This document shows positions 6,718-26,096 of a stretch of 64,000 nt of DNA, in pieces; the stretch's first letter is position 1, and each line of letters opens with the position of its first letter. The position numbers and the translations under genes were made by a program. The notes under the pieces were generated by a model. The model searched no databases, was not told where the DNA came from, and saw nothing but the letters and a program-made list of their open reading frames with translations. This DNA is from a virus (Duplodnaviria; Heunggongvirae; Uroviricota; Caudoviricetes). The stretch is from the IMG/VR virus record IMGVR_UViG_3300044638_009648. One strand, 5' to 3'.

Positions 6718-7614
6718 ATGTCAAAATTTGAAAAAGTAAAAGAACAGTATCCAAATGTTGGTAACGCAATCTTTACCAAAATTTACAACGAAGATTGGAC
6801 ACCAACCAAAAAGTATTTTCCATATATGATAAAGCTTTGGGATTCAAAAAAAACCAATGGTTTTAATTTTACTAGCGCCAACCTTGTAAAGTTAATGAGG
6901 CAGTTTGATGAATTGTTACCATACATAGATGATAAAGATATTTCTTCGGCAAAATATCGTACCTACGGTGATATCGAACGAGCTATTCTAAAAGCAGAGG
7001 TAGTAAAAGAGGAGAAGACCTTTGTTAGAGATGAGCACGTTATGGTTTTAGAAGAAACTGATGAGTATATTTACCTAACACCAATAACGCACCGAGGCTC
7101 TTTAAAATATGGTGCAAATACCCGTTGGTGTACCGCATCCAAACACGATGAAAGTACTTTCAATAGATATAAAAATAATGGTTTTTTGACTTACTTGATT
7201 TCCAAGAATGATAAAACTCATAAGAATTATACAAAAATTTCATTCTGGTCAGAAGAAATTTCATCACCATTTTCTGGTGAAGTAATGATTTACAATGTTA
7301 TTGATGATGCGGTTGTCGATTCTCAAGTCATTGATGCTGGATGGGACATATCTGTTATATTTAAGTTGATTACTAAATTTCGTGAAAAAGCTTTCCTAAA
7401 GTTTAAAACTCAACAAGCGGAATCCAATGTCAAGCGAAAATTACAAGTTATGGGTGGTTTTGATTTTGCTGGGTTAGCATCAGATATTCAGTTTTTGGGT
7501 GATATGACTAATCAGTTCGCAACCCAATCTGCATTGGCTGCTGAAGCTGAGCTTGTGATTCAAGCATTCGTGGACAACATTAAACGACAATTAGTAGAAA
7601 CAACATTAAACTAG
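6718..7614 (+). CDS. Hypothetical protein; member 1 of an intragenomic paralog family (WC-[TI]-[AG] core motif)
   Basis: Segment HRGSLKYGANTRWCTASKHDESTFNRYKNNGFLTYLIS is shared in pattern with the proteins at 22781 and 24237 (see findings). Confidence 0.5.
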   Translation: MSKFEKVKEQYPNVGNAIFTKIYNEDWTPTKKYFPYMIKLWDSKKTNGFNFTSANLVKLMRQFDELLPYIDDKDISSAKYRTYGDIERAILKAEVVKEEKTFVRDEHVMVLEETDEYIYLTPITHRGSLKYGANTRWCTASKHDESTFNRYKNNGFLTYLISKNDKTHKNYTKISFWSEEISSPFSGEVMIYNVIDDAVVDSQVIDAGWDISVIFKLITKFREKAFLKFKTQQAESNVKRKLQVMGGFDFAGLASDIQFLGDMTNQFATQSALAAEAELVIQAFVDNIKRQLVETTLN

Positions 7615-7647
7615 TAAAAACAACATTAAACAACAAAGTATTAGCAA

Positions 7648-7854
7648 ATGGATAACGGATTAAAAATTGATTTAAAATCGGCTGAAACAGTCGTGTGCGA
7701 GCAATGTGCTAACACCACCTTTGGTGAGGTATTTTCATTTAAGAAGGTATCCAAACTCTTGACTGGCTCAAATCAAGATGCTTTGGTACCATTTCCAATG
7801 TATAAGTGTGAGGCTTGTGGTCACATAAACGATGAGTTTCTGATGCCAGAATGA
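7648..7854 (+). CDS. Small zinc-ribbon protein
   Basis: 68 aa with two CxxC pairs (CEQC ... CEAC). Confidence 0.4.
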   Translation: MDNGLKIDLKSAETVVCEQCANTTFGEVFSFKKVSKLLTGSNQDALVPFPMYKCEACGHINDEFLMPE

Positions 7855-8630
7855 TTAAACGACTAGTTCACTTCTCGGATTTACACATTCGTTTATTCAA
7901 GGACCACGACCTTTATCGAAGCATTTTGACTAATGCTTTATCTGAATGGGAGGTTTTGAAACCCGACCGTATTGTCTTTACGGGTGATTTGGTGCATTCA
8001 AAAAATCAGATGACACCAGAGCTCATTGAGTTCGTGGCTTGGATTCTTAGCGAGTGTTCCAAAATCGCTAAGACAGTGCTGATTATTGGTAACCATGATT
8101 TTTTGGAAAACAACATGGCTCGCCTTGATGCATTAACACCCATTATTGAGTCATTGAACGAAAACAACATTGTTTACTACAAAGACCGTGGTGTATACCA
8201 AGATGAAAACATAATGTGGGTGGTATATTCCCTTTTAAGCCATAACATTCCACCAGAAATTCCGACCACTGATTTGAAAAAAATTGGTTTGTTTCATGGT
8301 CCAGTCGTTGGTTTAACAACAAACATTGGTTACAAGTTTGAAGACGGTTTTGAGGTTTCGAAGTTTGAAGGGTGTGATTTGGTGCTCTGCGGTGATATTC
8401 ACAAACGTCAAGTATTTGATATCCCAGGGGGTAAGAAAGCATATATGATAGGTTCAACCGTACAACAAAATTTTGGTGAAAGTATTACAAAACATGGCTA
8501 TGGAGTATATGACGTAGAATTTGATGAATATACCTTTGTAGACCTGCCTAACACCAAACCATTTCTGTCGTTCAAGATTACATCATACCAGGATTTAGAG
8601 ACTGGCTCGGAAAAACTATTGAATCTATAA
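7851..8630 (+). CDS. sbcD: SbcD/Mre11-family metallophosphoesterase nuclease
   Basis: Calcineurin-like motifs in canonical order: HFSDLH, FTGDLVH, IGNHD, CGDIHK. Confidence 0.82.
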   Translation: MIKRLVHFSDLHIRLFKDHDLYRSILTNALSEWEVLKPDRIVFTGDLVHSKNQMTPELIEFVAWILSECSKIAKTVLIIGNHDFLENNMARLDALTPIIESLNENNIVYYKDRGVYQDENIMWVVYSLLSHNIPPEIPTTDLKKIGLFHGPVVGLTTNIGYKFEDGFEVSKFEGCDLVLCGDIHKRQVFDIPGGKKAYMIGSTVQQNFGESITKHGYGVYDVEFDEYTFVDLPNTKPFLSFKITSYQDLETGSEKLLNL

Positions 8631-8631
8631 A

Positions 8632-9471
8632 ATGAGCTCCAAAGCTGAAAAGAATATAACCCTCACATCACAGGAACTAAAAGACCTTGAATCCTATTGC
8701 AAACTCAATGGTTTCGAAGTTGAAAAAGTGGTGAAGGAGTCCTATCTTCAAGGCTTTAGAATTGAAAAATATGGGTTATTGGGAAATCCAGGCGCAGTTC
8801 ATGAAAAACAAGTGCTAAAAGAGGTAATTGTTGAAAAACGGGTGGAAGTCCCAGTAGAAGTTATAATCGAAAAAATTGTTATAGAATATGTCGAAATTGA
8901 AAAAGAAATCATCCGAGAAGTCCCTAGGGAAATTGTTGTTGAAAAAATCATTGAAGTCGTTAAAGAAATCCCAGTTGAGAAAGTTATTGAAAAAACTGTG
9001 GAAGTCATTAAAGAAATACCGGTCGACAGGATTGTTATACAAGAAGTCATCAAAGAAGTTCCGGTTGAAAAAGTCGTCACCCGAACCGAGTATATTACAG
9101 ACGAGTCAAAAGTCGCTGAACTCTTGGAGGAACTTGAACAACTTAGGAATTTATCCCCAACCATTATCGATAGGGAGGTCATCAAAGAAATCCAAGTTCC
9201 CTACGAAGTTGTTAAAGAAATTCAGGTGGTTAAAGAAGTCATAGTAGAAGTGCCCGTCGAGGTCATTAGGGAGGTTCTAGTTGAAAAAAAAACTTCTGAA
9301 GATACGCAACGACTGCATGAAACACTTGGCAAACTTCGTCAAAAATCTATTGATAAGGATGTTAAGATAAAAGAACTCGAGGATGAAATAAATTCGCTAA
9401 AGAGCTTACAACAGCAACAAAAGGCTGTATATTTAAGAGGTTCAAATTTGGACAATAAACTTTATAAATAA
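8632..9471 (+). CDS. Acidic repeat protein with about 11-residue EV(I)KE(I/V)PVEKV periodicity plus a C-terminal coiled coil
   Basis: Repeated KEIPVEKVIEKT / VEVIKEIPVDR / IVIQEVIKEVP units. It is inserted between sbcD and sbcC. Confidence 0.5.
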   Translation: MSSKAEKNITLTSQELKDLESYCKLNGFEVEKVVKESYLQGFRIEKYGLLGNPGAVHEKQVLKEVIVEKRVEVPVEVIIEKIVIEYVEIEKEIIREVPREIVVEKIIEVVKEIPVEKVIEKTVEVIKEIPVDRIVIQEVIKEVPVEKVVTRTEYITDESKVAELLEELEQLRNLSPTIIDREVIKEIQVPYEVVKEIQVVKEVIVEVPVEVIREVLVEKKTSEDTQRLHETLGKLRQKSIDKDVKIKELEDEINSLKSLQQQQKAVYLRGSNLDNKLYK

Positions 9472-9476
9472 AAAAA

Positions 9477-9815
9477 ATGGATATTTTAATTTGGTTTGTT
9501 CTAGCTTATGGCTTCACAAACATAATGGTGTGGGGCTCAATCTTTGCTGGCATGAGAAATAAAATTGCTTTGATGGGTGATGACATTCTTAATCCCTTGT
9601 TCCCAATTTTCAAGTTTATCTCAGGAATTTTGTCCTGTGTAATGTGCTTCTCAACTTGGGCGGGGTTCTTCTTAGGCTTGTTGATTTACTCGCCAACACA
9701 CGAGTATTTTCAACTAACGAAGGACATTTCATGGTTCTTTGATGGACTCCTCGCCTCGGGAGCTGTATGGGCAATAAACGCCATTATTGAATGGTTTGAA
9801 AATAACAGAAACTAA
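9477..9815 (+). CDS. Small integral membrane protein
   Basis: Three or four hydrophobic segments (ILIWFVLAYGFTNIMVWGSIFAG ...). Confidence 0.4.
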   Translation: MDILIWFVLAYGFTNIMVWGSIFAGMRNKIALMGDDILNPLFPIFKFISGILSCVMCFSTWAGFFLGLLIYSPTHEYFQLTKDISWFFDGLLASGAVWAINAIIEWFENNRN

Positions 9816-9816
9816 A

Positions 9817-9996
9817 ATGGGAAAAAAAACAAAGGAACACCGCAAGAAGGTAGCTGCTCGTAACGCTAAATTGAAAGGCGAAGAGCGTGCATACCAAAAA
9901 ATTATGAATGAAGCTTACCAGAAATATATTGAGCAACTCAAAGAAGCTCAAATGTCTGGGGAGACCAAATCTGAAGAAAGTTTCACTGCTCAGTAA
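9817..9996 (+). CDS. Small basic protein
   Basis: MGKKTKEHRKKVAARNAKLKGEER...; start moved to the first ATG after the upstream stop. Confidence 0.3.
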   Translation: MGKKTKEHRKKVAARNAKLKGEERAYQKIMNEAYQKYIEQLKEAQMSGETKSEESFTAQ

Positions 9997-10008
9997 TCTG
10001 GGTCTGAA

Positions 10009-12381
10009 ATGGACTTATTCAATCAACCCCCCCTTTTCGACTTAATTACTATGGAAGAAGATATCAAAAATATAGAGCTCGATAACCCCTACCTGCAGGT
10101 GGTTTGGGAGGATTTTGCTGAGAATTTTACTCAAGAGCGCATCAAGAGTGTCAAGCAATATTTCGGTAAGAAGTATTCAACTACCAATGTCAACATCATC
10201 ACCAAGACAAAGCAAACGCAAGAGATAAATCACACGGTGGATGTGTCCATGAATATTATGGACAAAAACTACCAGAGAGAACTTATGCGAGGATTTTTGG
10301 TGTCCAAAGACAACGGGGATTATTTCGATGAGATTATCAAGATAGACGATGTGGTTGACAATAAGTTGGCTCAGGGAGATTTTGATGTAAATCCGTTTCA
10401 AAAGTGGTATATCAAAAAAATCCACTTCTCAAATTTCCTTTCTTATGGTGAGAACCAGACCTTGGATTTTGAGAAGTGCAATGGAATTACGGTTGTCGAA
10501 TCTGACCCCCCTAACTTTGGGGGCAAGACCGTTTTGACCGTTGACCTATTGTTGTTCTTGTTTTTCAACACAACTACCAAGACGCAAAAAGCTGAAGAGA
10601 TTTTCAACAGGTTTAGAAATGATGATAAGGTATCGGTCCGAGGTGAAGTTGTTATCGATGGTGATGACTATGTAATTTCAAGAACCATTGAACGTAAGAT
10701 GTCCAAGAAGGGGGAATGGAATGTCAAGACCGATTTGGACTTTGTTAAAAAGCTAGCTGATGGAAGTTACCAGAATTTTGTTGGCGAGCAGCGACGAGAA
10801 ACCGAGAAGTTTATCAAGAACTCCATTGGTGAGATGGATGACTTTTTGATGACCATTCTAACAACATCCAGCAACCTGGAAGAACTCATTGACGCAAAAC
10901 CTACAGCTCGTGGTCAGGTATTATCAAGATTTATGGGATTGGAGTTTCTAAAGCGAAAGGAAGAAGCTGCCAAAGAGGTGGTATCGGAATTTACCAAAGG
11001 GATGCTAAGCAATGTGTACAACACCGAAACCCTCAAACAGGATATTGAAGATAATCAAGCTCTTATTAAGGTAACTCAAGAAGATACCGAAAAGACAACT
11101 GGGGAGCTTAAAGATGTTGATGATAGATTAGCAACTGGTCAGGAGTTTAAGGATGGATTGCTAAATGCAAAACATACCGAAATTGACCAGGAGCTGGTGA
11201 AACTAAATCCCTTGAACCTAAAATCCGATATCACAAACCTTGAGGGTGAAAAAGAACGCATCGAGGGTCAGATTAAAGGGATGGTTGTTAAAGAACCATC
11301 ATCCTATTACCATGAAGACCATCACGATAAAATCCGCCGGGAAATAAGTGATAAAAACATTGAGAAATCCACCATTCAGATAAAGCTCGAAGGCATTGAG
11401 TCTTTGGTGAAATCATTAGAGGGGGGGGTTAAGTGTGAACACTGCGGTATTGAGCTAATCAATGCTGAGTTAAACAAAGCTAAGATTGCCCAGAAGGATG
11501 AGCTTCTGGCAAGTCTGGAAAAAGTTTCTGTAGAACTTGTGGCTTTGGAAGAGAAGGAAAAATCATTCACCCAACTCAAAAAAGATTTCGAGGAGTACGA
11601 AAAAAACAAGCTTATCAAGGAAAAATTGGAGGTAGGTTTAGAAGCTCAAGTTTTGAAAATTGAACGAGCAAAAGATAACTTGAAACGATATGAGCAATCT
11701 CAAGAAAAGATTAAATCCAACCAGGAGATTGATGCGAAGTTGATTAAAGCTCAAATGCGTATTGACGAGCTTATCAACAAAAAGCGCGAGCTTGACCGCA
11801 AGATTACTCAAAATGGTAATGTTGTGAATAATGCAACTGATAAGATTGCTAAAAACCAAGACTTGATTGAAAAAATTAAATTGGAGTTTGAACGTGAGAA
11901 GTTGTTCAAGATTTACTTGGAGCTTTATGGCAAGAATGGTATCAGTAAGATTATCATGAAAACCATGATGCCAATTATCAACGAGGAACTCCAGCGTCTT
12001 TTGCAAGATTCCAGTTACTTCAACTTGGAGATTCGCATCAATGACAAGAATGAGGTTGAGTTTATTATGATTGATAATTCCACCGGTATTGAAAAACTGA
12101 TGTCTTCTGGTTCGGGTTATGAGCGTACCATCGCTAGTATGGCTTTGCGAGCTGTATTAAGCAAGATTTGTTCGCTTCCAAAGCCCAATTTAGTTATATG
12201 GGACGAAGTCTTTGGTAAGATATCAAATGACAACTTAGAGCTTGTTGGAGAATTTTTTAACAAAATTAAGGAGTACTTCGAAAAGATTTTTGTTATCACT
12301 CACAATCCTTTGGTATCAAACTGGGCAGATAACATTGTGAAAATCAAAAAAGAAGAAAATATTTCGAAAGTTTATCAGTGA
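10009..12381 (+). CDS. sbcC: SbcC/Rad50-family SMC-like ATPase
   Basis: Long central coiled coil with a CxxC zinc hook (KCEHCG). C-terminal signature-like SSGSGYERT, Walker B LVIWDEVFG and H-loop VITHNP are present. The N-terminal P-loop is degenerate (PPNFGGKT). Confidence 0.72.
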   Translation: MDLFNQPPLFDLITMEEDIKNIELDNPYLQVVWEDFAENFTQERIKSVKQYFGKKYSTTNVNIITKTKQTQEINHTVDVSMNIMDKNYQRELMRGFLVSKDNGDYFDEIIKIDDVVDNKLAQGDFDVNPFQKWYIKKIHFSNFLSYGENQTLDFEKCNGITVVESDPPNFGGKTVLTVDLLLFLFFNTTTKTQKAEEIFNRFRNDDKVSVRGEVVIDGDDYVISRTIERKMSKKGEWNVKTDLDFVKKLADGSYQNFVGEQRRETEKFIKNSIGEMDDFLMTILTTSSNLEELIDAKPTARGQVLSRFMGLEFLKRKEEAAKEVVSEFTKGMLSNVYNTETLKQDIEDNQALIKVTQEDTEKTTGELKDVDDRLATGQEFKDGLLNAKHTEIDQELVKLNPLNLKSDITNLEGEKERIEGQIKGMVVKEPSSYYHEDHHDKIRREISDKNIEKSTIQIKLEGIESLVKSLEGGVKCEHCGIELINAELNKAKIAQKDELLASLEKVSVELVALEEKEKSFTQLKKDFEEYEKNKLIKEKLEVGLEAQVLKIERAKDNLKRYEQSQEKIKSNQEIDAKLIKAQMRIDELINKKRELDRKITQNGNVVNNATDKIAKNQDLIEKIKLEFEREKLFKIYLELYGKNGISKIIMKTMMPIINEELQRLLQDSSYFNLEIRINDKNEVEFIMIDNSTGIEKLMSSGSGYERTIASMALRAVLSKICSLPKPNLVIWDEVFGKISNDNLELVGEFFNKIKEYFEKIFVITHNPLVSNWADNIVKIKKEENISKVYQ

Positions 12382-12408
12382 TGGTAGATTTATATCATAT
12401 TAGGATTG

Positions 12409-12975: not shown

Positions 12976-13776
12976 ATGAAAGACAAAATTACATCAATTC
13001 CCTTCAATCAAGAAGAAATCGCAACTTATCTCAAAGATATTCGCAAAATAAAAGTTATGACTCCTGAGCGTGAGCGCGAATTAGCTCAACGAATTTTATC
13101 AGGAAATATCTCTCTCGTAGAAAAACGAGAAATCGAACGTGAATTGCTTATTGGTAATCTTAGATTTGTTATTACTGTTGCAAAACAGTACCAAAACCAA
13201 GGTTTGGAATTGGCCGATTTAATTGCAGAAGGTAATTTAGGTTTACTTAAAGCTGTTGAAAAGTTTGATTGGTCGCAACAATTGCGATTTATTTCTTATG
13301 CGGTATGGTGGATTCGTCAAGCTATATTGCAATCGTTGAACGAAAATTCTAGAACAATTCGACTTCCGGTCAATGTTGTTCAAGAATTGCAAAAAGCAAA
13401 AAAACTCGTTGAAAATAACGGTCAAGACCTGCCCGATAAATTTGCGACTTTACCATATACAATAAATTATGATTCTCCATTAAATGAAGAAGGAGATACT
13501 TTGTTGGATGTATTAAAAAACCCAGATGCGGCAATGCCTGACTCTATTTTTGATACTAAAGAAATGTTGAAAGATAAGCTTTTAAACGTAATGAATATTT
13601 TAGATAATCGTGAACGAGTAATTATTGAGGATTACTTTGGTATTTCAGGTCAAACAAGAACTTTGGAGGACATCGGAAACGATTTTCAACTAACGAAAGA
13701 AAGGGTCCGTCAAATTAAAGAAAAAGCTTTACGAAAACTTCGTAATGAATCTGGACAATTGTTTGAATACCTTTAA
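12976..13776 (+). CDS. Sigma-70 family RNA polymerase sigma factor (regions 2-4)
   Basis: Region 2: DLIAEGNLGLLKAVEKFD and FISYAVWWIRQAI. Region 4: LEDIGNDFQLTKERVRQIKEKALRKLR. Confidence 0.85.
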   Translation: MKDKITSIPFNQEEIATYLKDIRKIKVMTPERERELAQRILSGNISLVEKREIERELLIGNLRFVITVAKQYQNQGLELADLIAEGNLGLLKAVEKFDWSQQLRFISYAVWWIRQAILQSLNENSRTIRLPVNVVQELQKAKKLVENNGQDLPDKFATLPYTINYDSPLNEEGDTLLDVLKNPDAAMPDSIFDTKEMLKDKLLNVMNILDNRERVIIEDYFGISGQTRTLEDIGNDFQLTKERVRQIKEKALRKLRNESGQLFEYL

Positions 13777-15423: not shown

Positions 15424-16009
15424 TGAAATAAAAAGCTTAGTTAAGAAAGCTAGGCTTTTAAATGAAGCCCTAAATGCTGAAAAATTAGGGCAATTGGATG
15501 TCGCAACTGATATCGAAGATAAAATCCAAGATGATGTTGCTACAACAAACACATCAACACTGGGAACTGGCGGTGAGTCCCAGTTAACTACTTTAAACGC
15601 TAAGGAAGCAAAAGAAGAATTTGAAACGAAATACAGAATTTCCGGAAACATATTTGCCATCCATGGACCGACCAAAGCCTCTACAGATATAACAACAGAT
15701 GATAAAAATGCTTTTCAAGACACCATAGAAGAGTTCAATAATGAAGTTTCCGATTTTGCTGAATTCAATCAATTGAACGTTTACTCGAACACAGTTGAAT
15801 GGTCTGGAAAATTGATTGATAAAGATTTCGAGTTTCTTTTCACAATTGGAGAAAGTTCTGGTGTCTATATTGACGGCATTTTGATAAAATTGGACGAGGA
15901 AACAAAAACTACAATTGATAAGTTGTATGATTATTACGCTAAATTCAAAGCCAGATGGGCAAAAGTTTTAGCTACACGAAAACAAGTTGGTTATGAAGAA
16001 GAACTTTGA
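15389..16009 (+). CDS. Hypothetical acidic protein
   Basis: ORF only; the start is uncertain because it overlaps the amidase 3' end. Confidence 0.4.
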   Translation: MNMKNLMNERYDEIKSLVKKARLLNEALNAEKLGQLDVATDIEDKIQDDVATTNTSTLGTGGESQLTTLNAKEAKEEFETKYRISGNIFAIHGPTKASTDITTDDKNAFQDTIEEFNNEVSDFAEFNQLNVYSNTVEWSGKLIDKDFEFLFTIGESSGVYIDGILIKLDEETKTTIDKLYDYYAKFKARWAKVLATRKQVGYEEEL

Positions 16010-16379
16010 AAATATTTTAATTTTTTTAAGTAAAAATTTTAACAAAATTGGTATAACACTTTTAATTTTATTCGGTTTATATTGGATAATTTTTATACTC
16101 ACACCTTCGATAAAAATGTCGAGTGTTGCTGTAGAAGAAATAAAAAAATTGGACGAAGAAATTGGAACCATCAAATTGGAACAAAACATTCTTTATACGG
16201 AAATTCAACAATACGAAGAAAAAATTGAAGGTCTTGATGAAAACATTACAAAAATAAACACAACACAAAATAAAATCGCAGGTCAATATGGCGAAAAAAT
16301 TAATGCTGCTAGGAGTTATGATTATCAGCAGCTTGTCTCTTTTCTCTCAGAACGTTACTCCGACCCAGGAGTTCATTAA
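15987..16379 (+). CDS. Hypothetical membrane/coiled-coil protein
   Basis: TM segment ITLLILFGLYWIIFIL followed by a coiled coil. Confidence 0.3.
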   Translation: MVMKKNFENILIFLSKNFNKIGITLLILFGLYWIIFILTPSIKMSSVAVEEIKKLDEEIGTIKLEQNILYTEIQQYEEKIEGLDENITKINTTQNKIAGQYGEKINAARSYDYQQLVSFLSERYSDPGVH

Positions 16380-16704
16380 AATTCCAGTTCCAACTGTACG
16401 AAAAATTGTTGTAGACCTTGTTAAAGGTGATTCAGCAATTGCTCAACTTGAACAATCTAATCTCATGGTGACTGAACTTGAGAAAAAAACAACTTTACAA
16501 GATAATTTGATTACAAATTATAAGCAGATTGACGCTAACAATAAAATTATAATTACCAATTTAGAACGCAAAGTTGATGTTGTTGAAAAGGAATTTAAAA
16601 CTGTGGCAAAAGAACTGAAAAGACAAAAAGTAAAATCTAAAATTACAAATCTTGCAGGTTCAGCTGTCATTTTGACCTTAACGTTTTTTTTAATCACCAA
16701 ATAA
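16288..16704 (+). CDS. Secreted or membrane-anchored coiled-coil protein
   Basis: Signal-peptide-like MAKKLMLLGVMIISSLSLFSQ and a C-terminal TM segment. Confidence 0.4.
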   Translation: MAKKLMLLGVMIISSLSLFSQNVTPTQEFIKIPVPTVRKIVVDLVKGDSAIAQLEQSNLMVTELEKKTTLQDNLITNYKQIDANNKIIITNLERKVDVVEKEFKTVAKELKRQKVKSKITNLAGSAVILTLTFFLITK

Positions 16705-16949
16705 TGGCACTTAATAACTCAGACATGAAAGAAATTGAAGTTTTAATTCGTAAAGAAATTAAAACTTTTTTCGATAATCAAACCGTAAAACAGTTTGAGG
16801 ATAAATTTATGGAAAAAATTGCTAAGGAAATAAAAAGAGGTAAGTTAGAAGGTGAAGTAAAAGAACTTGTAATTAAAATGTTTCGAGAATTCTACCAATT
16901 CATGTGGATGAATAGGAGCTACTGGGAACCAAAACTAAAAAATGCATAA
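16704..16949 (+). CDS. Small hypothetical protein
   Basis: 81-aa ORF packed between neighbours. Confidence 0.3.
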   Translation: MALNNSDMKEIEVLIRKEIKTFFDNQTVKQFEDKFMEKIAKEIKRGKLEGEVKELVIKMFREFYQFMWMNRSYWEPKLKNA

Positions 16950-17728
16950 TGAGAAATATTAAAGATGTATTTAAAAAAGCGATAGATGACGCTTATACGA
17001 AACAAACAAATATAAAGCTTAACTCCAATATTGTTGGGGATGCTTTAAAATACCAACAAGATATGAAAGAGGATAAGAAAAAAATTGAATCTCAGGAAGC
17101 TACAGGAGCTTCGTCTGCTGGTCAGTATTCGGCACCATTATTTACAAAAGAAGAAACTAAAGAAAGTGAAAAACTCAAAGGTGGCTTAGCGGATACCTCT
17201 TCCTTATATGACATCGCTGCAAAACATGTTGAGGATAAAACTGTGAAAAAACAAAGCCCGGAAAGAATATCAAAAATGTTGTCCCATCTGACGCAACAAT
17301 TAATCAAGGGCATTAAAGTTGAAATGGAACATACCGACGATGTTAAAGTCGCTAAGGAAATTGCAATGGACCACTTGGCAGAGGACCCAAATTATTATAC
17401 AAAACTTAAAAGAATTGAGGAGGGTAAAGTTGAAGCTACAGAAGCTACAACAACAGCTTCTACCGGAGCTTATTCCACACCAGCATTTATTGCAAAGGGA
17501 AGTAAAAATTGGAGAGGTGGTAAGAAACCTATTTACAAGGGGGGTAAATTTGTTCAAATTAAAAAAAAGTGTTTGACTTTTCCATATTGTAATCAAGGAG
17601 CTGGTGCTGTAGATTACCCAAAAAAATTAAAGGAAAGTCAAGCATTTAGGAATGCAAGTCAAAGACTCGGGTTGTCTGAAGAAGTTGTTTTGAATATTTT
17701 GAATAAAATAAGTAACAATAAAAAGTAA
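16949..17728 (+). CDS. Hypothetical protein
   Basis: 259-aa ORF with no recognisable motif. Confidence 0.45.
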   Translation: MRNIKDVFKKAIDDAYTKQTNIKLNSNIVGDALKYQQDMKEDKKKIESQEATGASSAGQYSAPLFTKEETKESEKLKGGLADTSSLYDIAAKHVEDKTVKKQSPERISKMLSHLTQQLIKGIKVEMEHTDDVKVAKEIAMDHLAEDPNYYTKLKRIEEGKVEATEATTTASTGAYSTPAFIAKGSKNWRGGKKPIYKGGKFVQIKKKCLTFPYCNQGAGAVDYPKKLKESQAFRNASQRLGLSEEVVLNILNKISNNKK

Positions 17729-17775
17729 GCTGCTCTATTTCATAAAAAAAGATATTTATTAAGAAAACCATACTA

Positions 17776-19110
17776 ATGGAAAATTTTGAAAAGAAAATTA
17801 ACAAGATTGTTGAAAAAGCTTTAAAAGAAGCTATAGATGAAAGAGGCAACAACGTTGCTACTGAATTATTAAGAAAAGCTTTGATTGAAAGTGCTGAAAT
17901 AGGCGAAAAGCTAAAAGGAAATCAAGATAAGTTGGATGTCGCAGCCCCCAAAGGGAAGTTGACCTCCGCCGATTTCAAAAAACTGCGTGATATGAAAGAG
18001 GTAACTTTTGGTGATGATGAAGATGATGAGGTCGAACCTTACGGAGATTTCAAAACTGAAAAACCAAAAGTTCATGATATGAAGGAAAATAAATATGGCG
18101 AAAACAAAGCTGCTAAATTTATTGAATATTTGAAAAATTATCCTAAAGATACTGAAGAAAGAGATACTTTTGATAGAAAACCAAGTAAAGTTATTGGGGT
18201 TTATTCTGATATAGATAAACAAAGAATGGAAGAAGATGAAACCATGGAAGGTAATGCTTTTACCGGTGCCCTTGCAAAAGCTAAGGAAGAAGGTAAAGAT
18301 TCATTTGATTTCGAAGGTAAAAAATATTCTGTTAAAGAATCTAAAACTACAAAAGGTTCTAAAGCCGCTAAAGTAGATAAGAAAATTTTAAGAATGTCTG
18401 AATCTGAGGTTGTAGATATGATTGAAAAAATCGTGATGGAAGAAAAATCTAATATGCAAAAAAAGAGTTCTGCTGTTGAACCTGATTTCAATAAAGTTTC
18501 ATCTAAGAATAAAGAATTTGGTAGCGAACATCTTAAAGATGTGATGAAGAAAATGAAAGACTATCTAAAAACTGGCTCGGAAGGGGAATATGAAATGAAC
18601 CCTGAAAATTTTCCAGTGGGAAATGGTGAAATGAAAGAAATGCCCAAAAAAGCTTACACACCATCTGATGCTGTTGATGAGTATATTGATGCATTTGCTT
18701 ATCCAGGTCAAACAAATTTAGTTTATGATGAAATTAAACCAAATGATGAGTGGATTGAAGCAAACTTAGTGGGTTCATCAAAAACTGGTAATGCTCAGGT
18801 TGATGAAGACGGCAATGCTTTAGGTAATGTTGTTCCATCTAAGACTGGAGAAAAATTCTATAAGAATTACAAAGACAATCTTTATGGTGCGGAGCAAATG
18901 AATGCTTCATATAAGCGTTATCCACAACCTGTTGACCAAGCTGGTGAAGATACTGAAGATGGTGCTTTAGCGTTAAAAAAAGGTGCTGCAAAAGCGCAAA
19001 AAGTGTTGAACCAATTAGAATCCACAAAAAAGGTTAAAACCGAAAAAGTTTTGAGTGAAGAATTTGAAAGAATGAAAAAAATTATTTCTTACAATTCAAA
19101 GACTCAATAA
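17776..19110 (+). CDS. Highly charged hypothetical protein (scaffold or internal-protein-like composition)
   Basis: 444 aa, very K/E/D rich. Confidence 0.45.
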   Translation: MENFEKKINKIVEKALKEAIDERGNNVATELLRKALIESAEIGEKLKGNQDKLDVAAPKGKLTSADFKKLRDMKEVTFGDDEDDEVEPYGDFKTEKPKVHDMKENKYGENKAAKFIEYLKNYPKDTEERDTFDRKPSKVIGVYSDIDKQRMEEDETMEGNAFTGALAKAKEEGKDSFDFEGKKYSVKESKTTKGSKAAKVDKKILRMSESEVVDMIEKIVMEEKSNMQKKSSAVEPDFNKVSSKNKEFGSEHLKDVMKKMKDYLKTGSEGEYEMNPENFPVGNGEMKEMPKKAYTPSDAVDEYIDAFAYPGQTNLVYDEIKPNDEWIEANLVGSSKTGNAQVDEDGNALGNVVPSKTGEKFYKNYKDNLYGAEQMNASYKRYPQPVDQAGEDTEDGALALKKGAAKAQKVLNQLESTKKVKTEKVLSEEFERMKKIISYNSKTQ

Positions 19111-19626: not shown

Positions 19627-19694
19627 CCCATATAATATGCTTGATTATATTCTAGTATATTGTTTATAAACATAAAATTAATTAAAAGAAAAAA

Positions 19695-19868
19695 ATGGAA
19701 ACATTAGAGCAAATTAAAGCCCTTACTGAATCCTTGACAGTTGACGCTGAAAAGTTTTATAAAGGCAACAAAAGTGCTGGAACAAGAGCACGTAAATCAG
19801 CTCAAGAATTGAAAGCTTTGCTTCAACAATTCCGTCTCGAAATTCTTGAGGAAGGTAAGAAAAAGTAA
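19695..19868 (+). CDS. Histone H1-like small DNA-binding protein (Bacteroidetes type)
   Basis: 57 aa (below the ORF-track cutoff): METLEQIKALTESLTVDAEKFYKGNKSAGTRARKSAQELKALLQQFRLEILEEGKKK. It matches the short 'histone H1' family of Bacteroidetes (xxxDAEKFYxKxNxAAGTRxRKxxQExKxL). Confidence 0.55.
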   Translation: METLEQIKALTESLTVDAEKFYKGNKSAGTRARKSAQELKALLQQFRLEILEEGKKK

Positions 19869-20046: not shown

Positions 20047-20475
20047 ATGAATTTTTACACTGTTTTAGAACCTTTTATGGAATATTTTTTTTCCATAAGA
20101 AAATTAGAAAATTACTTATCATTTGATTTGGTTATCCCCAAAAGTTGGGGTATGCCTAAATCAGTTTCTCAAGATAATCAAATAGTTCCTTTTGAATCTT
20201 CAAGTTCTGAAAATATGAGGGGAATTAGTTTAGTTTGTGAAGCTACCCCTGAAGAAACTGATAAAGCGATTAAAGCTATTCTTAAAATTATTAGGGTGAA
20301 TAAGGAAAGAGAAGAAAAGGAAATTCTATTTAACGATGTTGTATTAACTCTGAAAAAAACATTTGAAAGTTCAGATTTAACACATCTAAAAAAACTCCAA
20401 TTTCACTTTGAAACTGACAAACCAAAAGAACTAGAAGAAGATGGACAAACAAAAACTATTGGATTGGCTGAATAA
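20047..20475 (+). CDS. Hypothetical protein
   Basis: Start moved to the internal ATG, downstream of a TATCTTTG motif at about 20003. Confidence 0.35.
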   Translation: MNFYTVLEPFMEYFFSIRKLENYLSFDLVIPKSWGMPKSVSQDNQIVPFESSSSENMRGISLVCEATPEETDKAIKAILKIIRVNKEREEKEILFNDVVLTLKKTFESSDLTHLKKLQFHFETDKPKELEEDGQTKTIGLAE

Positions 20476-20583
20476 TGAAAAGAAAAAAGATTCCGCCGAA
20501 ATTGAAAAACAAAAAAGAGATTTCGCAAATCAAATGCGAGCAATTAAAAAAGAAGATTTATTTAAACAAAGAAAAAAAACATT

Positions 20584-20838
20584 ATGGATGAGAATCAAAA
20601 ACCTGATTTGGGGCATTTAGAAAAGTTGGCAATCTTATCAGACAGTTTCCAAGATTTATTCCCTAATGGTAGTAGTTTAGTGGTATTCGAACTGTTTGAA
20701 GATGATTATCGAAAAATGCAGAAACACTTTAGAAGTGTTGACCACCATCATGAACAATTCACCGTGGAAATATCAGGGGTAGATTTTCACTTCATGTTAA
20801 AAAAAGAGGTGATTTCTACGGACGAGGAGAAGTCGTAA
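20584..20838 (+). CDS. Hypothetical protein
   Basis: 84-aa ORF. Confidence 0.3.
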   Translation: MDENQKPDLGHLEKLAILSDSFQDLFPNGSSLVVFELFEDDYRKMQKHFRSVDHHHEQFTVEISGVDFHFMLKKEVISTDEEKS

Positions 20839-21460
20839 ATCTTTGGTAAAGTGTTTTTTTATCAAGACCCAACTCAGAAAGTAAATTTAGTAAATATTTT
20901 TTTTGGGCTGTAGATTCATCTTTTATGAACATACAGTCCTTTCTTTTTATAATGTAAAAGTATTGGGATATTGAATCTATAAATCTTTTAGCTTCATCAA
21001 TATTTTTCACGGTAAACAAACTTAGATTTGCTTCAATTTGTACTATGATTTTATTATTGAGGGAAGAAATCATTTTTAACCCGTCTCCCTTCAAATAATT
21101 TTTTATGAAAAATTGTATATCAATTTTTTCATTTTTTTGGGTATCGAAAATTTTTTCAGGAACTTTATAATCCGTAATTTTCAAAAAATCGTAGGAGTCG
21201 TTTTCAAGAACTACTCTGATGTTTCTACCTAACTCATCTGTTTTATAAACATCAAAAAAATCTACAGATTTATTTTGTAGAAGAGCCAGCTCAAAGTTAC
21301 ATAATTTAGCGTTTTCAATTTTTTTATCAAAAATAATTTCTTTGGATTCATCAATCAACGTTTTATAGAATTTTTCAGCATTTTTCAAATTACTAAATTT
21401 CTTTATTATTTTTTGTCGGGTCTTATTTTTAAACAACACAACATAATATTTGGGTACCAT
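20816..21460 (-). CDS. Hypothetical protein (minus strand)
   Basis: 214-aa ORF convergent with upstream genes and divergent from dnaJ. Confidence 0.45.
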   Translation of the reverse strand: MVPKYYVVLFKNKTRQKIIKKFSNLKNAEKFYKTLIDESKEIIFDKKIENAKLCNFELALLQNKSVDFFDVYKTDELGRNIRVVLENDSYDFLKITDYKVPEKIFDTQKNEKIDIQFFIKNYLKGDGLKMISSLNNKIIVQIEANLSLFTVKNIDEAKRFIDSISQYFYIIKRKDCMFIKDESTAQKKYLLNLLSELGLDKKTLYQRFTTSPRP

Positions 21461-21464
21461 TTGA

Positions 21465-22388
21465 ATGAAAAATTATTTTGAAATATTAGGCGTCTCAGAA
21501 GATGCTAACGATGATGAGATTAAGAAACAATATAGATTATTATCAAAAAAATACCACCCTGACATAAATCCTGGCGGGGCAGATAAATTCAAAGAAATTG
21601 CCGAAGCTTACGATGTTTTATCTGACCCAGATAAAAAAATAAGATACCAACAACAAAAAAACAACCCTTTCAACGGTGGACCATTTGAAGAATTCTTCAA
21701 AAATGTTTACTCCAGTGGGCCTGAATTTCACCACAAAAGAAAAGTTGCTGATAAAATCATAAAACTACCAGTAAGTGTTTCAGAATCTTATAGAGGGATT
21801 TCTAAACAAATTAATTATCAAAGAAACATCGCCTGTACGGATTGCAATGGAAATGGCGGTGAAAACATACCATGTAGTCAATGTCAAGGTTCAGGATTCT
21901 TTTTTCAAATTTTGGGCTCAGGATTTTTCCAACAAAAGCTAAGAGTGGCGTGTCCATCTTGCCAGGGAAAGGGAAAAATCATAGTGTCTTATTGTGGCAC
22001 GTGTTCCGGAGTTGGTACAAAGTCAAATTTTGAAACTATAAATGTTAATCTACCCAAAGGTATTGATGACGGGCAATTTATGAAACTTGAAGGTAAAGGA
22101 GATTTTATCCAGGGAATGTACGGTGACCTAGTTTTACAAACCACAATGCAACAAGATGGTGAGTTCCAAAAAATGGGCGTTGATTTGATTTATAATTTAA
22201 TTTTAGACTTAGAAACTATTAAGGGTGAAATATTTCAAATCCCTCATCCTGATGGTGAATTGAAAATTGGTGCGCCGCAAATTATTGACACAAATAAACC
22301 GCTAAGATTAAAAAATAAAGGTTTCCCCGGGGGGGACATGTATGTCAAGATTAATGTCGTATATGATAAATCAAAACAGGTTGACTAA
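21465..22388 (+). CDS. dnaJ: DnaJ/Hsp40 co-chaperone (J domain, CR zinc finger and C-terminal domain)
   Basis: J domain with YHPDINP (HPD motif), followed by four CxxCxGxG zinc-finger repeats (CTDCNGNG, CSQCQGSG, CPSCQGKG, CGTCSGVG). Confidence 0.85.
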   Translation: MKNYFEILGVSEDANDDEIKKQYRLLSKKYHPDINPGGADKFKEIAEAYDVLSDPDKKIRYQQQKNNPFNGGPFEEFFKNVYSSGPEFHHKRKVADKIIKLPVSVSESYRGISKQINYQRNIACTDCNGNGGENIPCSQCQGSGFFFQILGSGFFQQKLRVACPSCQGKGKIIVSYCGTCSGVGTKSNFETINVNLPKGIDDGQFMKLEGKGDFIQGMYGDLVLQTTMQQDGEFQKMGVDLIYNLILDLETIKGEIFQIPHPDGELKIGAPQIIDTNKPLRLKNKGFPGGDMYVKINVVYDKSKQVD

Positions 22389-22464
22389 GTAATTAAACAA
22401 CTTATAGGTTGTGTAAATTACTGAAGCTAGACCATAGACACTAAAAATTAACATCCAACTCCAT

Positions 22465-22725
22465 GTGTTGGAAATATTTAAGATAGATTTGTTTTTACAA
22501 CTTGAGCATGCCATAATATTTATAAATATGAAAAGTTTAATTCGAAGATTTCTTTTAGAATATATTAAAGAACAATCTATGAATCAATCTTTTGAGGTTG
22601 ATGAAGAAAAAAAATTTGTTAAACCTAGAAAATGGTCTGCTTCTTATTGTAAGAAAACTTCTTGTGATAAAATGGGTTTTTCTCAAAAGGCATCTTGCAG
22701 ACCCTACAAAAACTGCTACAAATAA
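22465..22725 (+). CDS. Small hypothetical Cys-containing protein
   Basis: 86-aa ORF. Confidence 0.3.
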   Translation: MLEIFKIDLFLQLEHAIIFINMKSLIRRFLLEYIKEQSMNQSFEVDEEKKFVKPRKWSASYCKKTSCDKMGFSQKASCRPYKNCYK

Positions 22726-22780
22726 TTTCTAAGGATATTGCACATTTCATTTTGGTGACGTAAGTTTGCACCACTTATAA

Positions 22781-24202
22781 ATGATTTCGATGGTAACCAT
22801 GACAAAATCAAAAAATGCGCTCTCTCGTTTTGAGTTCTTGTTCAACAAGTATGTCAACCTTGAGAAATGGATGAGTTCTGAATATGAACTAAACTTTTTC
22901 CCTTATTATAATAGCGTGTTTGAAACAATCACATCCAAAGTGAATGTTGCAGATTTTTTTACCATCATTTTGTTTGACCCTACAACCCGTTTAAATGGTA
23001 TTACAGAACTTTACATCCAAAAGATGCTCGAAAATAAGACTCTTAATTTATCAGACTTGTGTGGTAAAATAAAAGTTGGTGAATATTCCGAGTGGTTAAT
23101 CAAACAGTTTTTGAATGTAGTATCCAACCAATCTAATGATAGTTCCGGTCAAGCTCGTGAAACTCTTTTACTGCGTGTTCGTTTTATTGAAGACCTCTAT
23201 AAGGTGCAAGAAAACCTTACGAAGTTTCATAGGTTCAAAAACCGTCTTATTGAAGATAATAGAGACATTAATAAACTTACGATTGGGGATTTGGAGTTTC
23301 TGATGTCGGAGTATTCTCTGGAAAAAACTAAGGCTACGGCAGAGGAGAAAGAGTCGGCAAAGAGTTCGTATTCATATCCTGGTTCGGAAATCGTTTTCAA
23401 AGGACTTAAATGGACAGTTGTCAAAATTAGTCAATTGAACGACTTGGCCAAAGATGCTGCATGTTTCTTTGGGGGTTATGATTTGAAACCAACAATGGGT
23501 GAAACAGCCTGGTGCACAGCCTCTCCTGGAACTTACAACCGTTACAACTATCATGCAGAAAAAGGTCCTTTGTATGTAGTGCTCCCTAATGAATGTGATA
23601 CGTTTGGAAAAAAAACAGGACTACCGTCAGTTAGGTATCAATTTCACTTCTCCACAAATCAATTCATGGACAAACACGACAAGAAAATTATTTTGACGGA
23701 TTATCTCAATGGTCCTATGTTGGAGCTTAAAGAATTTTTCAAACCTGAATTCGCTGCTGGATTGATAGGTAATGGTGGTGAAGAACTTTTGATTGATGAT
23801 TTTGAAAACGGTTCGGTTGGTAAGTACATTAAGTTGTATGGTCTTGATGATTTGTTTGATATTATTCCAGATACCTTGACCAAGATACATGTTAAAAATA
23901 GCAAAGCTGGTGTATCTCTGATTTTACCGGCCTCAATCACCCGGTTTAAAAATCTAACATCAATTTACTTCAAGAACTGTCTGTCAGAAATCCCTGAAGA
24001 AATCTGTTCACTTGAAAATCTTGTTTTTATAGCATTAGAGGGTAATCAAAATCTCAAGCAACTACCTGAAAAAATTATCGACTTACCAAAACTCTTATTC
24101 TTAAATCTAAAGGGTTGCTCTAATCTCACTCTCTCCGATTACTTTAAATCTAATAGTTTTGAGTTTGGTCCTGGTCTATGGAAAGGAAAAGCTATGATAT
24201 GA
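22781..24202 (+). CDS. Paralog family member 2: N-terminal WCTAS-motif domain fused to C-terminal leucine-rich repeats
   Basis: ETAWCTASPGTYNRYNYHAEKGPLYVVL core. C-terminal LRRs: LTSIYFKNCLSEIPEEICSLENLVFIALEGNQNLKQLPEKIIDLPKLLFLNLKGC. Confidence 0.55.
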   Translation: MISMVTMTKSKNALSRFEFLFNKYVNLEKWMSSEYELNFFPYYNSVFETITSKVNVADFFTIILFDPTTRLNGITELYIQKMLENKTLNLSDLCGKIKVGEYSEWLIKQFLNVVSNQSNDSSGQARETLLLRVRFIEDLYKVQENLTKFHRFKNRLIEDNRDINKLTIGDLEFLMSEYSLEKTKATAEEKESAKSSYSYPGSEIVFKGLKWTVVKISQLNDLAKDAACFFGGYDLKPTMGETAWCTASPGTYNRYNYHAEKGPLYVVLPNECDTFGKKTGLPSVRYQFHFSTNQFMDKHDKKIILTDYLNGPMLELKEFFKPEFAAGLIGNGGEELLIDDFENGSVGKYIKLYGLDDLFDIIPDTLTKIHVKNSKAGVSLILPASITRFKNLTSIYFKNCLSEIPEEICSLENLVFIALEGNQNLKQLPEKIIDLPKLLFLNLKGCSNLTLSDYFKSNSFEFGPGLWKGKAMI

Positions 24203-24236
24203 GTGTAATATAAGCTACAACAACATATTTATTATT

Positions 24237-26096
24237 ATGAAATTACTTAATATCTTAAATGGTACTCTTATAGTAGAGGTTTCTGAGAGCCTTAAGAAAA
24301 AGCTTTTGGATAAATTTAAACTTGAAACTCAAGACACTGAGAAAGATATTCTCGAATATATTGAGAGCTTCGAAAAATACCAACGGTCGCTTCCAGCTGA
24401 CCAGCGAGACATCACGCGTTACGATTTCAAAACTCTGAAGTCCTTAATTGACTCGATAGAAAATGGTAAAACTCGTAAAGCTGATGTGAATTCTGCGATT
24501 ACTAGTATAATCAAAAAAACACAGGAAAAAAAAGAAGTTTTTTCGTTACCAGAGTTACAGTTAGCGGTAAAAAAGTTTTTTGAAATTCAATCTGAAATAA
24601 AAGATGCTAACAAAGATATTAATAAGTTCAGTTATTTAAAACTCATACAATTTCTGGAAAAAAATTACGAGGACTTATTAACTCAGAAATTATTAAACAA
24701 ATTCAAACCGGAAAACCAAATTCTCACAAACGAGCAAATTTTATCTTATATTTCAGAATATATTGAAAATTTTAATGATATACCCTTTGATACGCCAGGT
24801 GCTGATTTAATGTCCTTTACCCAATTTGAACATTTAATTGATGCGATGATTGCAAAAAGAGGTCTTGGAAAAAAAACCAAAACTGAATTAAAAGATATTC
24901 CTCCTATCTATGATGATGGCGAAGACTTCAAAATTTATGCACCAACAGGAAAGGAACACTGTATCAAACTAGCCCATGGGCGTACTTGGTGTATTGGCTG
25001 GCTTGGTGGTCGAAACTTGTATTACAATTATCGAATAGGGAATGAAAGAACCATTTATTATGTTATAGACGAATCTTTAGACTACGAAGACCGTTATTTC
25101 GCAAATGTGATTTTGGTTGACCCAAGGGGTGGTACTTCTTTTGCTGACAAGACCAATTCTAGACCATTTGATGGCAGTGTGAATTTGCCTTGGGACGAAA
25201 TCTCTGGTTTCATTCCAAAGTTAAAAAATCTAAAAAATTTATTCGTTTCTAGACCCCTTAGCGAGGATGAAATCGAAATGCGGGACAGATATCAAAACAT
25301 AGAGTATGATAGACGTGGCAATAGAAGATTACCCAATAATCAAACCCCGATGGAATATTTTGATTCTCCAGAAAAGATTGCACAATGGATGGAAATTAAA
25401 GGGCCTGAGTTATTTGATGAAGATTACGCTAGTTTACCCCAAGAATTGAAAAAGAAGTACGTTGCTCTTGGATTTGATTTAACACCCGGTCAAATTGCTA
25501 CCTCTGAAGCTTCTGTTTTGAATTATTACGCTAAGAGAAAAATTGAGAATATTAAACAGAGCACTTTAAATAAGCTTGATGATGGTGATATTGCTTTATT
25601 AAATTCCCCAATTTTTAAGCAATTGAAACAGGAGTTGAAACCTCGTTTCAGTCAAGGTCTTTCAAGAAACTCAGACCCATCTGAATTTGAAGTACTTGGT
25701 TTTAGTAGAAACAGTGAAGTGGGTAAGTTTTTAAAGTTGTACAGTTTGGAAGACTTTATTGAATTCATCAATCCCAATGTAGAATCTATAACAATTCAAG
25801 GTGACGATTCTAATGTTAAAATCAAAATACCTAGAGCTATAGTTGAATTTAAAAATTTGGGAAGTTTAGTTTTGTCGAATGGTGTTATCGATGAAATACC
25901 GGACTACATTTGTGAACTCAAAAATTTGAAATTCTTAGGTTTACAGAATAATCCCGGAATCACTAGATTACCTGATTGTGTTGCAGATTTACCTTTACTT
26001 GAAATTCTAAATTTGCAAGGTTCGGATAATGTTGTTATTCCTGAATCAGTTAAAAATAGATTCTCAGAGGACTTAGGTCCTGGCATTTGGACGTAA
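24237..26096 (+). CDS. Paralog family member 3: WC-motif domain fused to C-terminal leucine-rich repeats
   Basis: HGRTWCIGWLGGRNLYYNYRIGNERTIYYVID core. LRRs: LGSLVLSNGVIDEIPDYICELKNLKFLGLQNNPGITRLPDCVADLPLLEILNLQG. Confidence 0.55.
   Translation: MKLLNILNGTLIVEVSESLKKKLLDKFKLETQDTEKDILEYIESFEKYQRSLPADQRDITRYDFKTLKSLIDSIENGKTRKADVNSAITSIIKKTQEKKEVFSLPELQLAVKKFFEIQSEIKDANKDINKFSYLKLIQFLEKNYEDLLTQKLLNKFKPENQILTNEQILSYISEYIENFNDIPFDTPGADLMSFTQFEHLIDAMIAKRGLGKKTKTELKDIPPIYDDGEDFKIYAPTGKEHCIKLAHGRTWCIGWLGGRNLYYNYRIGNERTIYYVIDESLDYEDRYFANVILVDPRGGTSFADKTNSRPFDGSVNLPWDEISGFIPKLKNLKNLFVSRPLSEDEIEMRDRYQNIEYDRRGNRRLPNNQTPMEYFDSPEKIAQWMEIKGPELFDEDYASLPQELKKKYVALGFDLTPGQIATSEASVLNYYAKRKIENIKQSTLNKLDDGDIALLNSPIFKQLKQELKPRFSQGLSRNSDPSEFEVLGFSRNSEVGKFLKLYSLEDFIEFINPNVESITIQGDDSNVKIKIPRAIVEFKNLGSLVLSNGVIDEIPDYICELKNLKFLGLQNNPGITRLPDCVADLPLLEILNLQGSDNVVIPESVKNRFSEDLGPGIWT

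Follow-up and report, generated by a model that had tools for sequence, protein, structure and literature searches.

A Trp-Cys protein module shared by three paralogous proteins of a T4-like jumbo phage, two of them with leucine-rich repeat tails

We have analysed a stretch of 64,000 nucleotides of the IMG/VR virus record IMGVR_UViG_3300044638_009648 (Caudoviricetes), referred to in the following as the window, which belongs to a T4-like jumbo phage found in freshwater metagenomes; its genome has a G+C content of ∼35%, and a close relative, 97–98% identical, lies on a 315,966-bp contig. Three proteins encoded on the plus strand are the subject of this work: P1 (open reading frame, ORF, 6718–7614, 298 aa), P2 (22781–24202, 473 aa) and P3 (24237–26096, 619 aa). 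Profile comparison of their families shows P1, P2 and P3 to be paralogs of ancient divergence, all built on a single uncharacterised protein module that is best conserved in a loop centred on Trp-Cys. The same module is carried by other jumbo phages, with a different C-terminal part in different proteins, and the leucine-rich repeats (LRRs) of P2 and P3 are one such part. A fourth protein, P4 (27286–28914), previously taken for a possible divergent member, is assigned below to another family.

The Trp-Cys module and its conservation

The three ORFs and the core peptides quoted for them in an earlier, sequence-only reading of the window are present as claimed. The whole window has 587 ORFs of 40 aa or more in its six reading frames, and among them the pattern WC[TI][ASG] is confined to P1, P2 and P3. 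By single-sequence BLASTP, P1 and P2 match at E = 0.005 over 19 aa and the P2 and P3 cores at E = 1.8, with no match between P1 and P3. Profiles were derived from family alignments of diverse members (A1 for P1, A2 for P3, A3 and also A4 for P2). With hhalign, the cut-out core profiles match at E = 4e-9 (P1–P2), 7.8e-6 (P1–P3) and 4.1e-5 (P2–P3), and the whole-protein profiles at E = 2.9e-7 over 162 columns (A1–A3) and 1.3e-5 over 116 columns (A1–A2). The best E-value in 53 control comparisons with unrelated 100-column segments of the alignments was 0.013, and six reversed alignments gave E-values of 0.14 or higher. When the hidden Markov model of each core was searched against the 587 ORFs, the other two proteins were recovered as the first non-self matches or within the top three. 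The proposed intragenomic paralog family is borne out by these values. A chance resemblance of the motif between proteins that are otherwise unrelated outside the LRRs is effectively refuted and retains almost no probability, since, although pairwise BLASTP of the cores is not significant, the profile–profile E-values lie 3 to 7 orders of magnitude beyond any control, the cores are reciprocal top matches among the 587 ORFs, the structural models of P1 and P2 show an equal order of secondary-structure elements, and bridging homologs in other phages hold both the N-terminal motifs and the core.

Each of the three proteins heads a family of its own, comprising at least 200 homologs of ∼295 aa for P1, 231 homologs of ∼600 aa for P3 and more than 3,216 homolog clusters at 90% identity for P2, and in each alignment the motif is the best-conserved part. 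It reads P-x-T-H-R-G-S-L-K-Y-G-A-N-T-R-W-C-T-A-S in the P1 family (A1), G-E-T-R-W-C-T-S-S-P-G in the P2 family (A3) and N-G-R-x-W-C-T-S-R-E-G in the P3 family (A2), with a consensus for the loop, G-x-T-[RK]-[WFY]-C-[TIL]-[ASTG], that is carried by all 358 full-length homologs. The Cys is retained in 120/120 P1-family, 120/120 P3-family and 118/118 full-length P2-family proteins. Of the Trp-Cys pair that had been described as invariant, it is therefore the Cys that deserves the word, as eight P3-family members have Tyr or Phe in place of the Trp; all eight belong to a C-[IL]-G subclade of which P3 of the window (W-C-I-G) is itself a member, and no other replacement of the Trp was seen. The sequence-only reading had named an unsupported alignment and a non-conserved Cys as the two outcomes fatal to the family; the alignment is supported and the Cys is conserved, and the paralogy therefore stands.

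The core peptides compared originally are real but understate the shared region, which extends over a whole N-terminal module and not merely 27 aa. The module is ∼200–250 aa long. In it, a 40-aa helix-loop-helix motif, F-x-R-Y-K-x-x-L-P-x3-R-D-I-x-x-Y-x3-L, occurs one to three times and precedes an alpha/beta core, of which the loop G-x-T-R-W-C-T-[AS] is the most conserved element. P1 contains one weak copy of the helix-loop-helix motif (aa 51–92, 6868–6993, FDELLPYIDDKDISSAKY), which on its own gives only E ∼0.03 but is covered by the whole-profile A1–A2 and A1–A3 alignments, and a core at aa 100–200 (7015–7317), delimited by the A1 columns, the AlphaFold2 (AF2) model and hhalign, with W137-C138-T139 at 7126–7134. 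P2 contains a single copy (aa 144–183, 23210–23329, beginning KFHRFKNRLIEDNRDINKLT) that matches the first repeat of P3, repeat a, at E = 3.8e-7, and a core at aa 195–305 (23363–23695; A3/A4 columns and AF2) with W244-C245-T246 at 23510–23518. P3 contains three copies in tandem (aa 36–74, 105–143 and 155–209; 24342–24863), which match one another in hhalign comparisons of family sub-alignments (a–b, E = 5.3e-6; a–c, 4.5e-6; b–c, 5.5e-3), and a core at aa 215–325 (24879–25211; invariant C252 of A2, hhalign) with W251-C252-I253-G254 at 24987–24998. The helix-loop-helix motif, which is found once each in PA5oct gp205 and CcrBL9 gp486 as well, matched no family known to the tools used.

The AF2 model of P1 (mean predicted local distance difference test score, pLDDT, 88) comprises an N-terminal helical part, the core and long C-terminal helices, the elements of the core following the order beta-beta-alpha-alpha(W-C)-alpha-beta-beta-beta. 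The P2 core, modelled independently and by itself (pLDDT 78.8, predicted template modelling score 0.74), has its elements in the same order as P1. In both models the Trp-Cys segment has the lowest pLDDT within the core and yet is its most conserved part, as would be expected of a functional loop rather than of packing residues. Sequence-profile searches of the PDB with A1, A4 and A5 returned no match, and the module is without a solved structural relative. No Pfam model matches the Trp-Cys module in P1–P3 or in their families, and for P1–P4 together Pfam, NCBIfam and PHROGs gave only LRR, weak PcfJ, DUF932 and unknown-function PHROG matches, while PADLOC gave nothing.

C-terminal parts and relatives in other phages

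The three paralogs differ in what follows the module. P1 ends in a long helical or coiled-coil part and has no LRR. In P2, aa 306–473 (23696–24202; BLASTP, hhalign, Pfam and NCBIfam) form a linker, four LRRs at ∼aa 365–450 and a tail ending in G-x-G-L-W; in P3, an uncharacterised middle region of 130 aa separates the core from aa 452–619 (25590–26096; BLASTP, phmmer and hhalign), with four LRRs at ∼aa 515–605 and a G-P-G-I-W tail. The LRRs ascribed to the two larger members are genuine. The P3 C-terminus matches LRR proteins of the PDB by phmmer at E = 2e-20, Pfam LRR_14 is matched in all 23 P2-family members scanned, and four LxxLxLxxN/CxL repeats are readable in each protein; the individual Pfam LRR_14, LRR_8 and LRR_4 matches fall below the gathering score. 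The last 165 aa of P2 and P3 are 37% identical (BLASTP E = 1e-28, hhalign E = 3e-51), and these C-terminal parts are far closer to each other than are the N-terminal modules. The common unit comprises the conserved linker, the four LRRs and a G-x-G-[ILM]-W end. Phage LRR proteins had been considered uncommon, a view that does not hold in this clade, where the more than 3,216 clusters match P2.

In their LRR units, P2 and P3 are similar to bacterial LRR effectors, namely Xanthomonas XopAE, XopAC and XopL (NCBIfam E = 2e-10 to 3e-5). These effectors and the IpaH/SspH proteins of Shigella and Salmonella follow the same general logic as P2 and P3, in which LRRs for targeting are coupled to another domain that may be catalytic; in IpaH this other domain uses a catalytic Cys. 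In contrast, the resemblance of P2 and P3 to the effectors is limited to the LRRs, NEL, XL-box and Fic domains being absent. P2 and P3 also have their LRRs, just four in each, at the C-terminus, which is the opposite order to that of the effectors, and they are encoded by a phage, outside any secretion signal context. Membership of the IpaH/NEL or XopL type finds no support in the NCBIfam matches, which cover only the LRR region, lie far below the cut-offs and are accompanied by no further domain.

The module is found well beyond this phage. A Foldseek search of predicted viral structures with the P1 model gave 20 matches at E ≤ 1e-3, all of them uncharacterised, which include proteins of Caulobacter phage CcrBL9 and PA5oct (the latter named 'structural protein'), several proteins each from single metagenomic myoviruses, proteins of Marseillevirus-labelled bins, one of which is annotated with ankyrin repeats, and a siphovirus LRR protein. 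By tblastn the module was detected in all PA5oct-like phages (Ettore gp2, PA5oct gp205), in CcrBL9 gp486 and at four places in Salicola phage SCTP-2 (gp37 and three more), and P1 matches phrog_17056 at E = 9e-8; the matching PHROGs, 17056 and 28193, are both of unknown function. The family is therefore not confined to this phage and occurs in several unrelated jumbo phages, often in multiple copies. PA5oct gp205 (EST35_0205), Ettore gp0002, CcrBL9 gp486 and SCTP-2 gp37 contain the whole module as in P1–P3, with an A-D-P-[ST]...Y..W helix, F-x-R-x-K..LP..RD[IV]..Y and a G-x-[TA]-[RK]-W-C-T-A core. All four phages infect Proteobacteria and belong to other lineages, and the proteins have no assigned function. 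Their C-terminal parts are unlike those of P1–P3, being absent from CcrBL9 gp486, a protein of 249 aa that is the module alone, and helical in PA5oct and Ettore; a DUF4116-like end in SCTP-2 gp37 was not confirmed by Pfam and was dropped. Thus, the module is N-terminal and the tails vary, being LRR in P2 and P3, helical in P1, PA5oct and Ettore, and ankyrin or LRR in other viral proteins. A comparative paper on jumbo phages (PMC7824862) makes no mention of LRR proteins, PA5oct or DUF932.

Gene neighbourhoods and the PcfJ family

The genes of P2 and P3 adjoin each other downstream of the phage DnaJ gene, and the LRR-less P1 lies within a primase/Mre11/Rad50 module, both as originally described. 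P1 occupies the same position between the primase and Mre11-like genes in a relative at 39% identity. In the relatives L014 and L015, in which P2 is ∼44% identical, the order of the P2 locus is DnaJ (then a Dam methylase, not counted in the core order), P2, an ORF of ∼95 aa, the P4 ortholog, an ORF of ∼100 aa, thioredoxin and glutaredoxin; the P4 ortholog beside P2 in L015 is 30% identical (E = 3e-55). P3 and the neighbouring gene of a DUF932 protein (26485–27240, plus strand; Pfam PF06067, E = 2.5e-27) are missing from the locus in both relatives and are present in the close, 97–98% identical relative, and are therefore a lineage-specific insertion into an older P2–P4 gene pair. DUF932 is a family typical of conjugative elements and phages. 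A 316-kb relative has a P3-like gene elsewhere, two genes upstream of the tail sheath gene.

P4 (542 aa, plus strand) had been put forward as a possible fourth, divergent member of the Trp-Cys family. The proposal fails, as the P4 family profile matches the three cores only at E = 0.18–0.56 with hhalign, and P4 was rejected as a member on these values. P4 itself matches Pfam PcfJ (PF14284) weakly, at E = 0.005 and 17.1 bits against a gathering cut-off of 25, over a domain at ∼aa 389–475 (28450–28710) identified by Pfam and a scan of the family. The P4 family has 425 representative homologs, and 20 of the 27 aligned members match PF14284, with a best E-value of 2.6e-7; its signature, E-S..Q-x-N-C-V..Y / R..T-x-E / Q..G-x-F-N, is in register with PcfJ of plasmid pCF10. 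Judged by profile, P4 belongs to the PcfJ family and, at the level of sequence, falls outside the Trp-Cys family. Relatives of P4 were found neither in viral contigs by peptide patterns nor in phage records by tblastn, an exact look-up of P4 gave no record, a contig scan with the pCF10 PcfJ domain recovered identical copies alone, and a search of phage records for DNA nearly identical to window 22000–29000 gave no match.

The converse, that P1–P3 are PcfJ members, was likewise rejected, the hhalign comparison of the PcfJ profile with the cores not being significant. P1–P3 and their families do not match PF14284 even at an E-value of 1 or 5, and merged superfamily profiles of PcfJ and the Trp-Cys cores give a non-significant E = 0.24. 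The PF14284 signature reads, in succession, E-[SG]..x-[HN]-C-V..Y, R...T-x-E and Q..G-x-x-N; P1–P3 offer counterparts only to its Cys, to a Tyr after that and to an Asn or Asp further on, and have other residues in place of E-S..Q-x-N-C-V, R..T-x-E and Q..G-x-F-N. The position of the domain differs as well, being N-terminal or central, after the helix-loop-helix motif, in P1–P3 and near the C-terminus of proteins of 450–900 aa in PcfJ. PcfJ-like proteins are nevertheless the nearest annotated fold neighbours of the Trp-Cys module. Foldseek matches of the P1 model to them have E-values of 1.2e-3, 4.7e-3 and 1.2e-2 (probability 0.75–0.96) at low template modelling (TM) scores of 0.22–0.28, and the P1 core profile aligns with the single pCF10 PcfJ sequence in register, Cys on Cys, at a suggestive p = 5.8e-4. 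The layouts of LLFLTPHSLQEIIQEGSILRHCVGS in pCF10 PcfJ and YIYLTPITHRGSLKYGANTRWCTAS in P1 are alike, proceeding from a hydrophobic strand followed by Pro-[ST] through a helix, a Gly, an aromatic residue or His and then the Cys, to a Tyr, a Gly and three strands, and both groups of proteins occur in mobile elements and phages. The Foldseek matches and the similar layout around the Cys make a distant common origin of PcfJ and the Trp-Cys module possible, and the Trp-Cys family is probably an uncharacterised branch placed near PcfJ.

No functional study of PcfJ was found in the literature. In plasmids pCF10, pSsal-YU10 and pQY182 the PcfJ gene directly adjoins a gene of the AcrIIA9 family, and AcrIIA9 carries a PcfK domain (PMC6739104). 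The three plasmids with this PcfJ–AcrIIA9 (PcfK) pair are all from Firmicutes, and in pCF10 the pair lies at 15874–17984, just downstream of the relaxase gene.

Within the locus of the window, the DUF932 and PcfJ-like genes have between them, at 27261–27282, a strong G+C-rich hairpin with a T-run after it, as would be expected if P2-P3-ORF90-DUF932 and P4 formed transcription units that are separate or attenuated. The thioredoxin and glutaredoxin genes (29099–29812, plus strand) follow a few genes downstream of the invariant-Cys proteins, an arrangement conserved in the relatives.

Possible roles and other features of the window

The best explanation overall, in which our confidence is no better than middling, is that P1–P3 are built on a paralogous module with an invariant-Cys site, that the tails choose its partners and that the proteins act in host takeover or anti-defence. 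The module would be a constant working head, its invariant-Cys loop a candidate ligand-binding or catalytic site, and the tails would decide to which partner it is brought. P2 and P3 would probably dock on the same or a similar host or phage protein, because the LRR unit of the two is almost the same, and P1 would serve the replication/recombination module. The likeliest role would be to take over the host or neutralise its defences as infection is established, a reading to which three observations point: P2 is fixed beside a PcfJ-family gene, plasmid PcfJ lies beside AcrIIA9/PcfK anti-CRISPR genes, and an expansion of paralogs with variable tails is typical of conflict proteins. Confidence in the division of labour between head and tails, and in the takeover or anti-defence role, is moderate to low.

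Several findings count against this explanation. No experiment or annotated homolog gives a function, the PHROGs matched being of unknown function and PADLOC returning nothing. The link to PcfJ is not significant by profile (E = 0.18–0.56) and rests on Foldseek matches of low TM score, and an anti-defence role so derived would be guilt by association twice removed, because PcfJ is itself uncharacterised. P1 is single-copy, strongly conserved and embedded in the replication/recombination module, which is more in keeping with a housekeeping function in the phage than with a conflict protein. P3-like genes lie beside tail genes in a distant relative, and the PA5oct ortholog has been detected in virion preparations.

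The enzyme envisaged in the sequence-only reading, thiol-dependent, with the Cys as nucleophile and delivered by the LRRs to a host protein, is doubtful. In a refined form P2 would be active, through C245, H289 and D297/D300, and P1 and P3 inactive or mechanistically different. The Cys is invariant over all families and distant phages, and in the AF2 model of P1 it stands at the start of a short helix (H136–141), as is common for nucleophilic cysteines. The P2 family has invariant polar residues after the Cys (R285, Q287, H289, Q294, D297 and D300), of which H289, D297 and D300, in the segment Q-F-H-F-x-S-N-Q-F-M-D-x-H-D, form with C245 a candidate Cys-His-Asp set; the segment Q-F-H...N-Q-x-x-D-x-x-D is kept in PA5oct, Ettore and CcrBL9. 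The conserved thioredoxin and glutaredoxin genes nearby would also suit thiol chemistry, but in phages the two proteins usually serve ribonucleotide reductase. No Pfam or NCBIfam enzyme is matched, and the combination of fold, Cys at a helix N-terminus and conserved His partner that defines cysteine peptidase-like proteins (papain-like, NlpC/P60 or transglutaminase-like) was not found. Thiol catalysis is thus without support from the fold, and its Cys-His form cannot be a property of the whole family because the His is missing from P1, P3 and SCTP-2 gp37, in which the Cys is kept.

A place in the virion, as packaged internal proteins that are ejected or as tail accessory proteins, with the LRRs binding the host surface or parts of the virion, appears improbable. 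It would account for the annotation of PA5oct EST35_0205 as 'structural protein, ESI-MS/MS' among flanking products detected by mass spectrometry, for the position of the Ettore gene after the large terminase gene and for the P3-like gene close to the tail sheath gene in the 316-kb relative. However, the list of 93 products detected in PA5oct virions by mass spectrometry takes in seven enzymes unrelated to the virion (PMC7318152), and EST35_0207, a neighbour resembling single-stranded DNA-binding (SSB) protein, is tagged structural too, so that detection in PA5oct is weak evidence. In the window, none of the three genes is surrounded by structural genes: P2 and P3 have DnaJ, thioredoxin and PcfJ-like genes around them, and P1 has replication genes.

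An accessory function in DNA metabolism, for example as a DNA- or protein-binding replication/recombination factor from which the LRR versions were derived as adaptors, seems quite improbable for the family as a whole. The fixed position of P1 between primase and Mre11/Rad50-like genes at 39% identity, the proximity of Ettore gp2 to SSB and UvsX, and that of plasmid PcfJ to the relaxase gene all favour it, but no nuclease or DNA-binding motif was recognised and P2 and P3 lie outside the replication modules. Among the three proteins, P1 is the one for which a replication/recombination accessory role is most plausible. The enzymatic, virion and replication readings are not mutually exclusive.

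A bolder proposal would combine the tail-directed module of the favoured explanation with PcfJ and with catalysis: the Trp-Cys module and PcfJ would together represent a new class of Cys-dependent enzymes or covalent ligand-binding proteins, which large phages and conjugative plasmids would bring into play as invasion begins and which interchangeable LRR, ankyrin or helical tails would steer to host targets such as defence or repair proteins, with the P2 type (Cys-His-Asp) active and P1 and P3 specialised or inactive. We regard this as improbable. Should the distant link to PcfJ be real, jumbo phages would be connected to an orphan family that is widespread in conjugative plasmids, where it adjoins anti-CRISPR and anti-restriction genes. 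Each of the two families would then have a site open to testing, the invariant Cys loop, and partners open to testing, the binders of the P2/P3 LRR unit. If the proteins are ordinary structural or accessory ones, the outcome is a useful annotation of many 'hypothetical proteins' and no more. The family is a large orphan with a sharply defined candidate site and, as yet, no mechanistic surprise: it comprises thousands of metagenomic clusters and at least four unrelated jumbo-phage lineages, often with several copies per genome, one copy is fixed in the replication/recombination module, and it is without a Pfam model, structure or function.

Besides the primase, Mre11-like, Rad50-like, DnaJ, thioredoxin and glutaredoxin genes, the window encodes a sigma-70 family factor of the phage itself, in which regions 1.2, 2 and 4 are present (12976–13776, plus strand). 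A protein with SprB repeats is encoded at 42–1700 (plus strand); the SprB repeat domain is typical of gliding Bacteroidota, which hints at a Bacteroidota host. A scan for sigma-70 promoters gave no enrichment over shuffled sequences, with a model that is ill-suited to the probable Bacteroidota host. An ORF of 60 aa at 19686–19865 (plus strand) is a clear homolog of Hc1, the histone H1-like protein of chlamydiae (Pfam E = 7.5e-22), and is kept at the equivalent place in the relatives L014–L017. Downstream of the thioredoxin and glutaredoxin genes, three consecutive giant ORFs of 1293, 1195 and 1139 aa (29890–40770, plus strand) have a G+C content of 50–59%, compared with ∼35% for the genome. 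They are made up of Gly-X-Y collagen repeats, with a Peptidase_S74 intramolecular-chaperone domain at the end of each (E = 1e-13 to 1e-14), and probably encode collagen-like fibre proteins.

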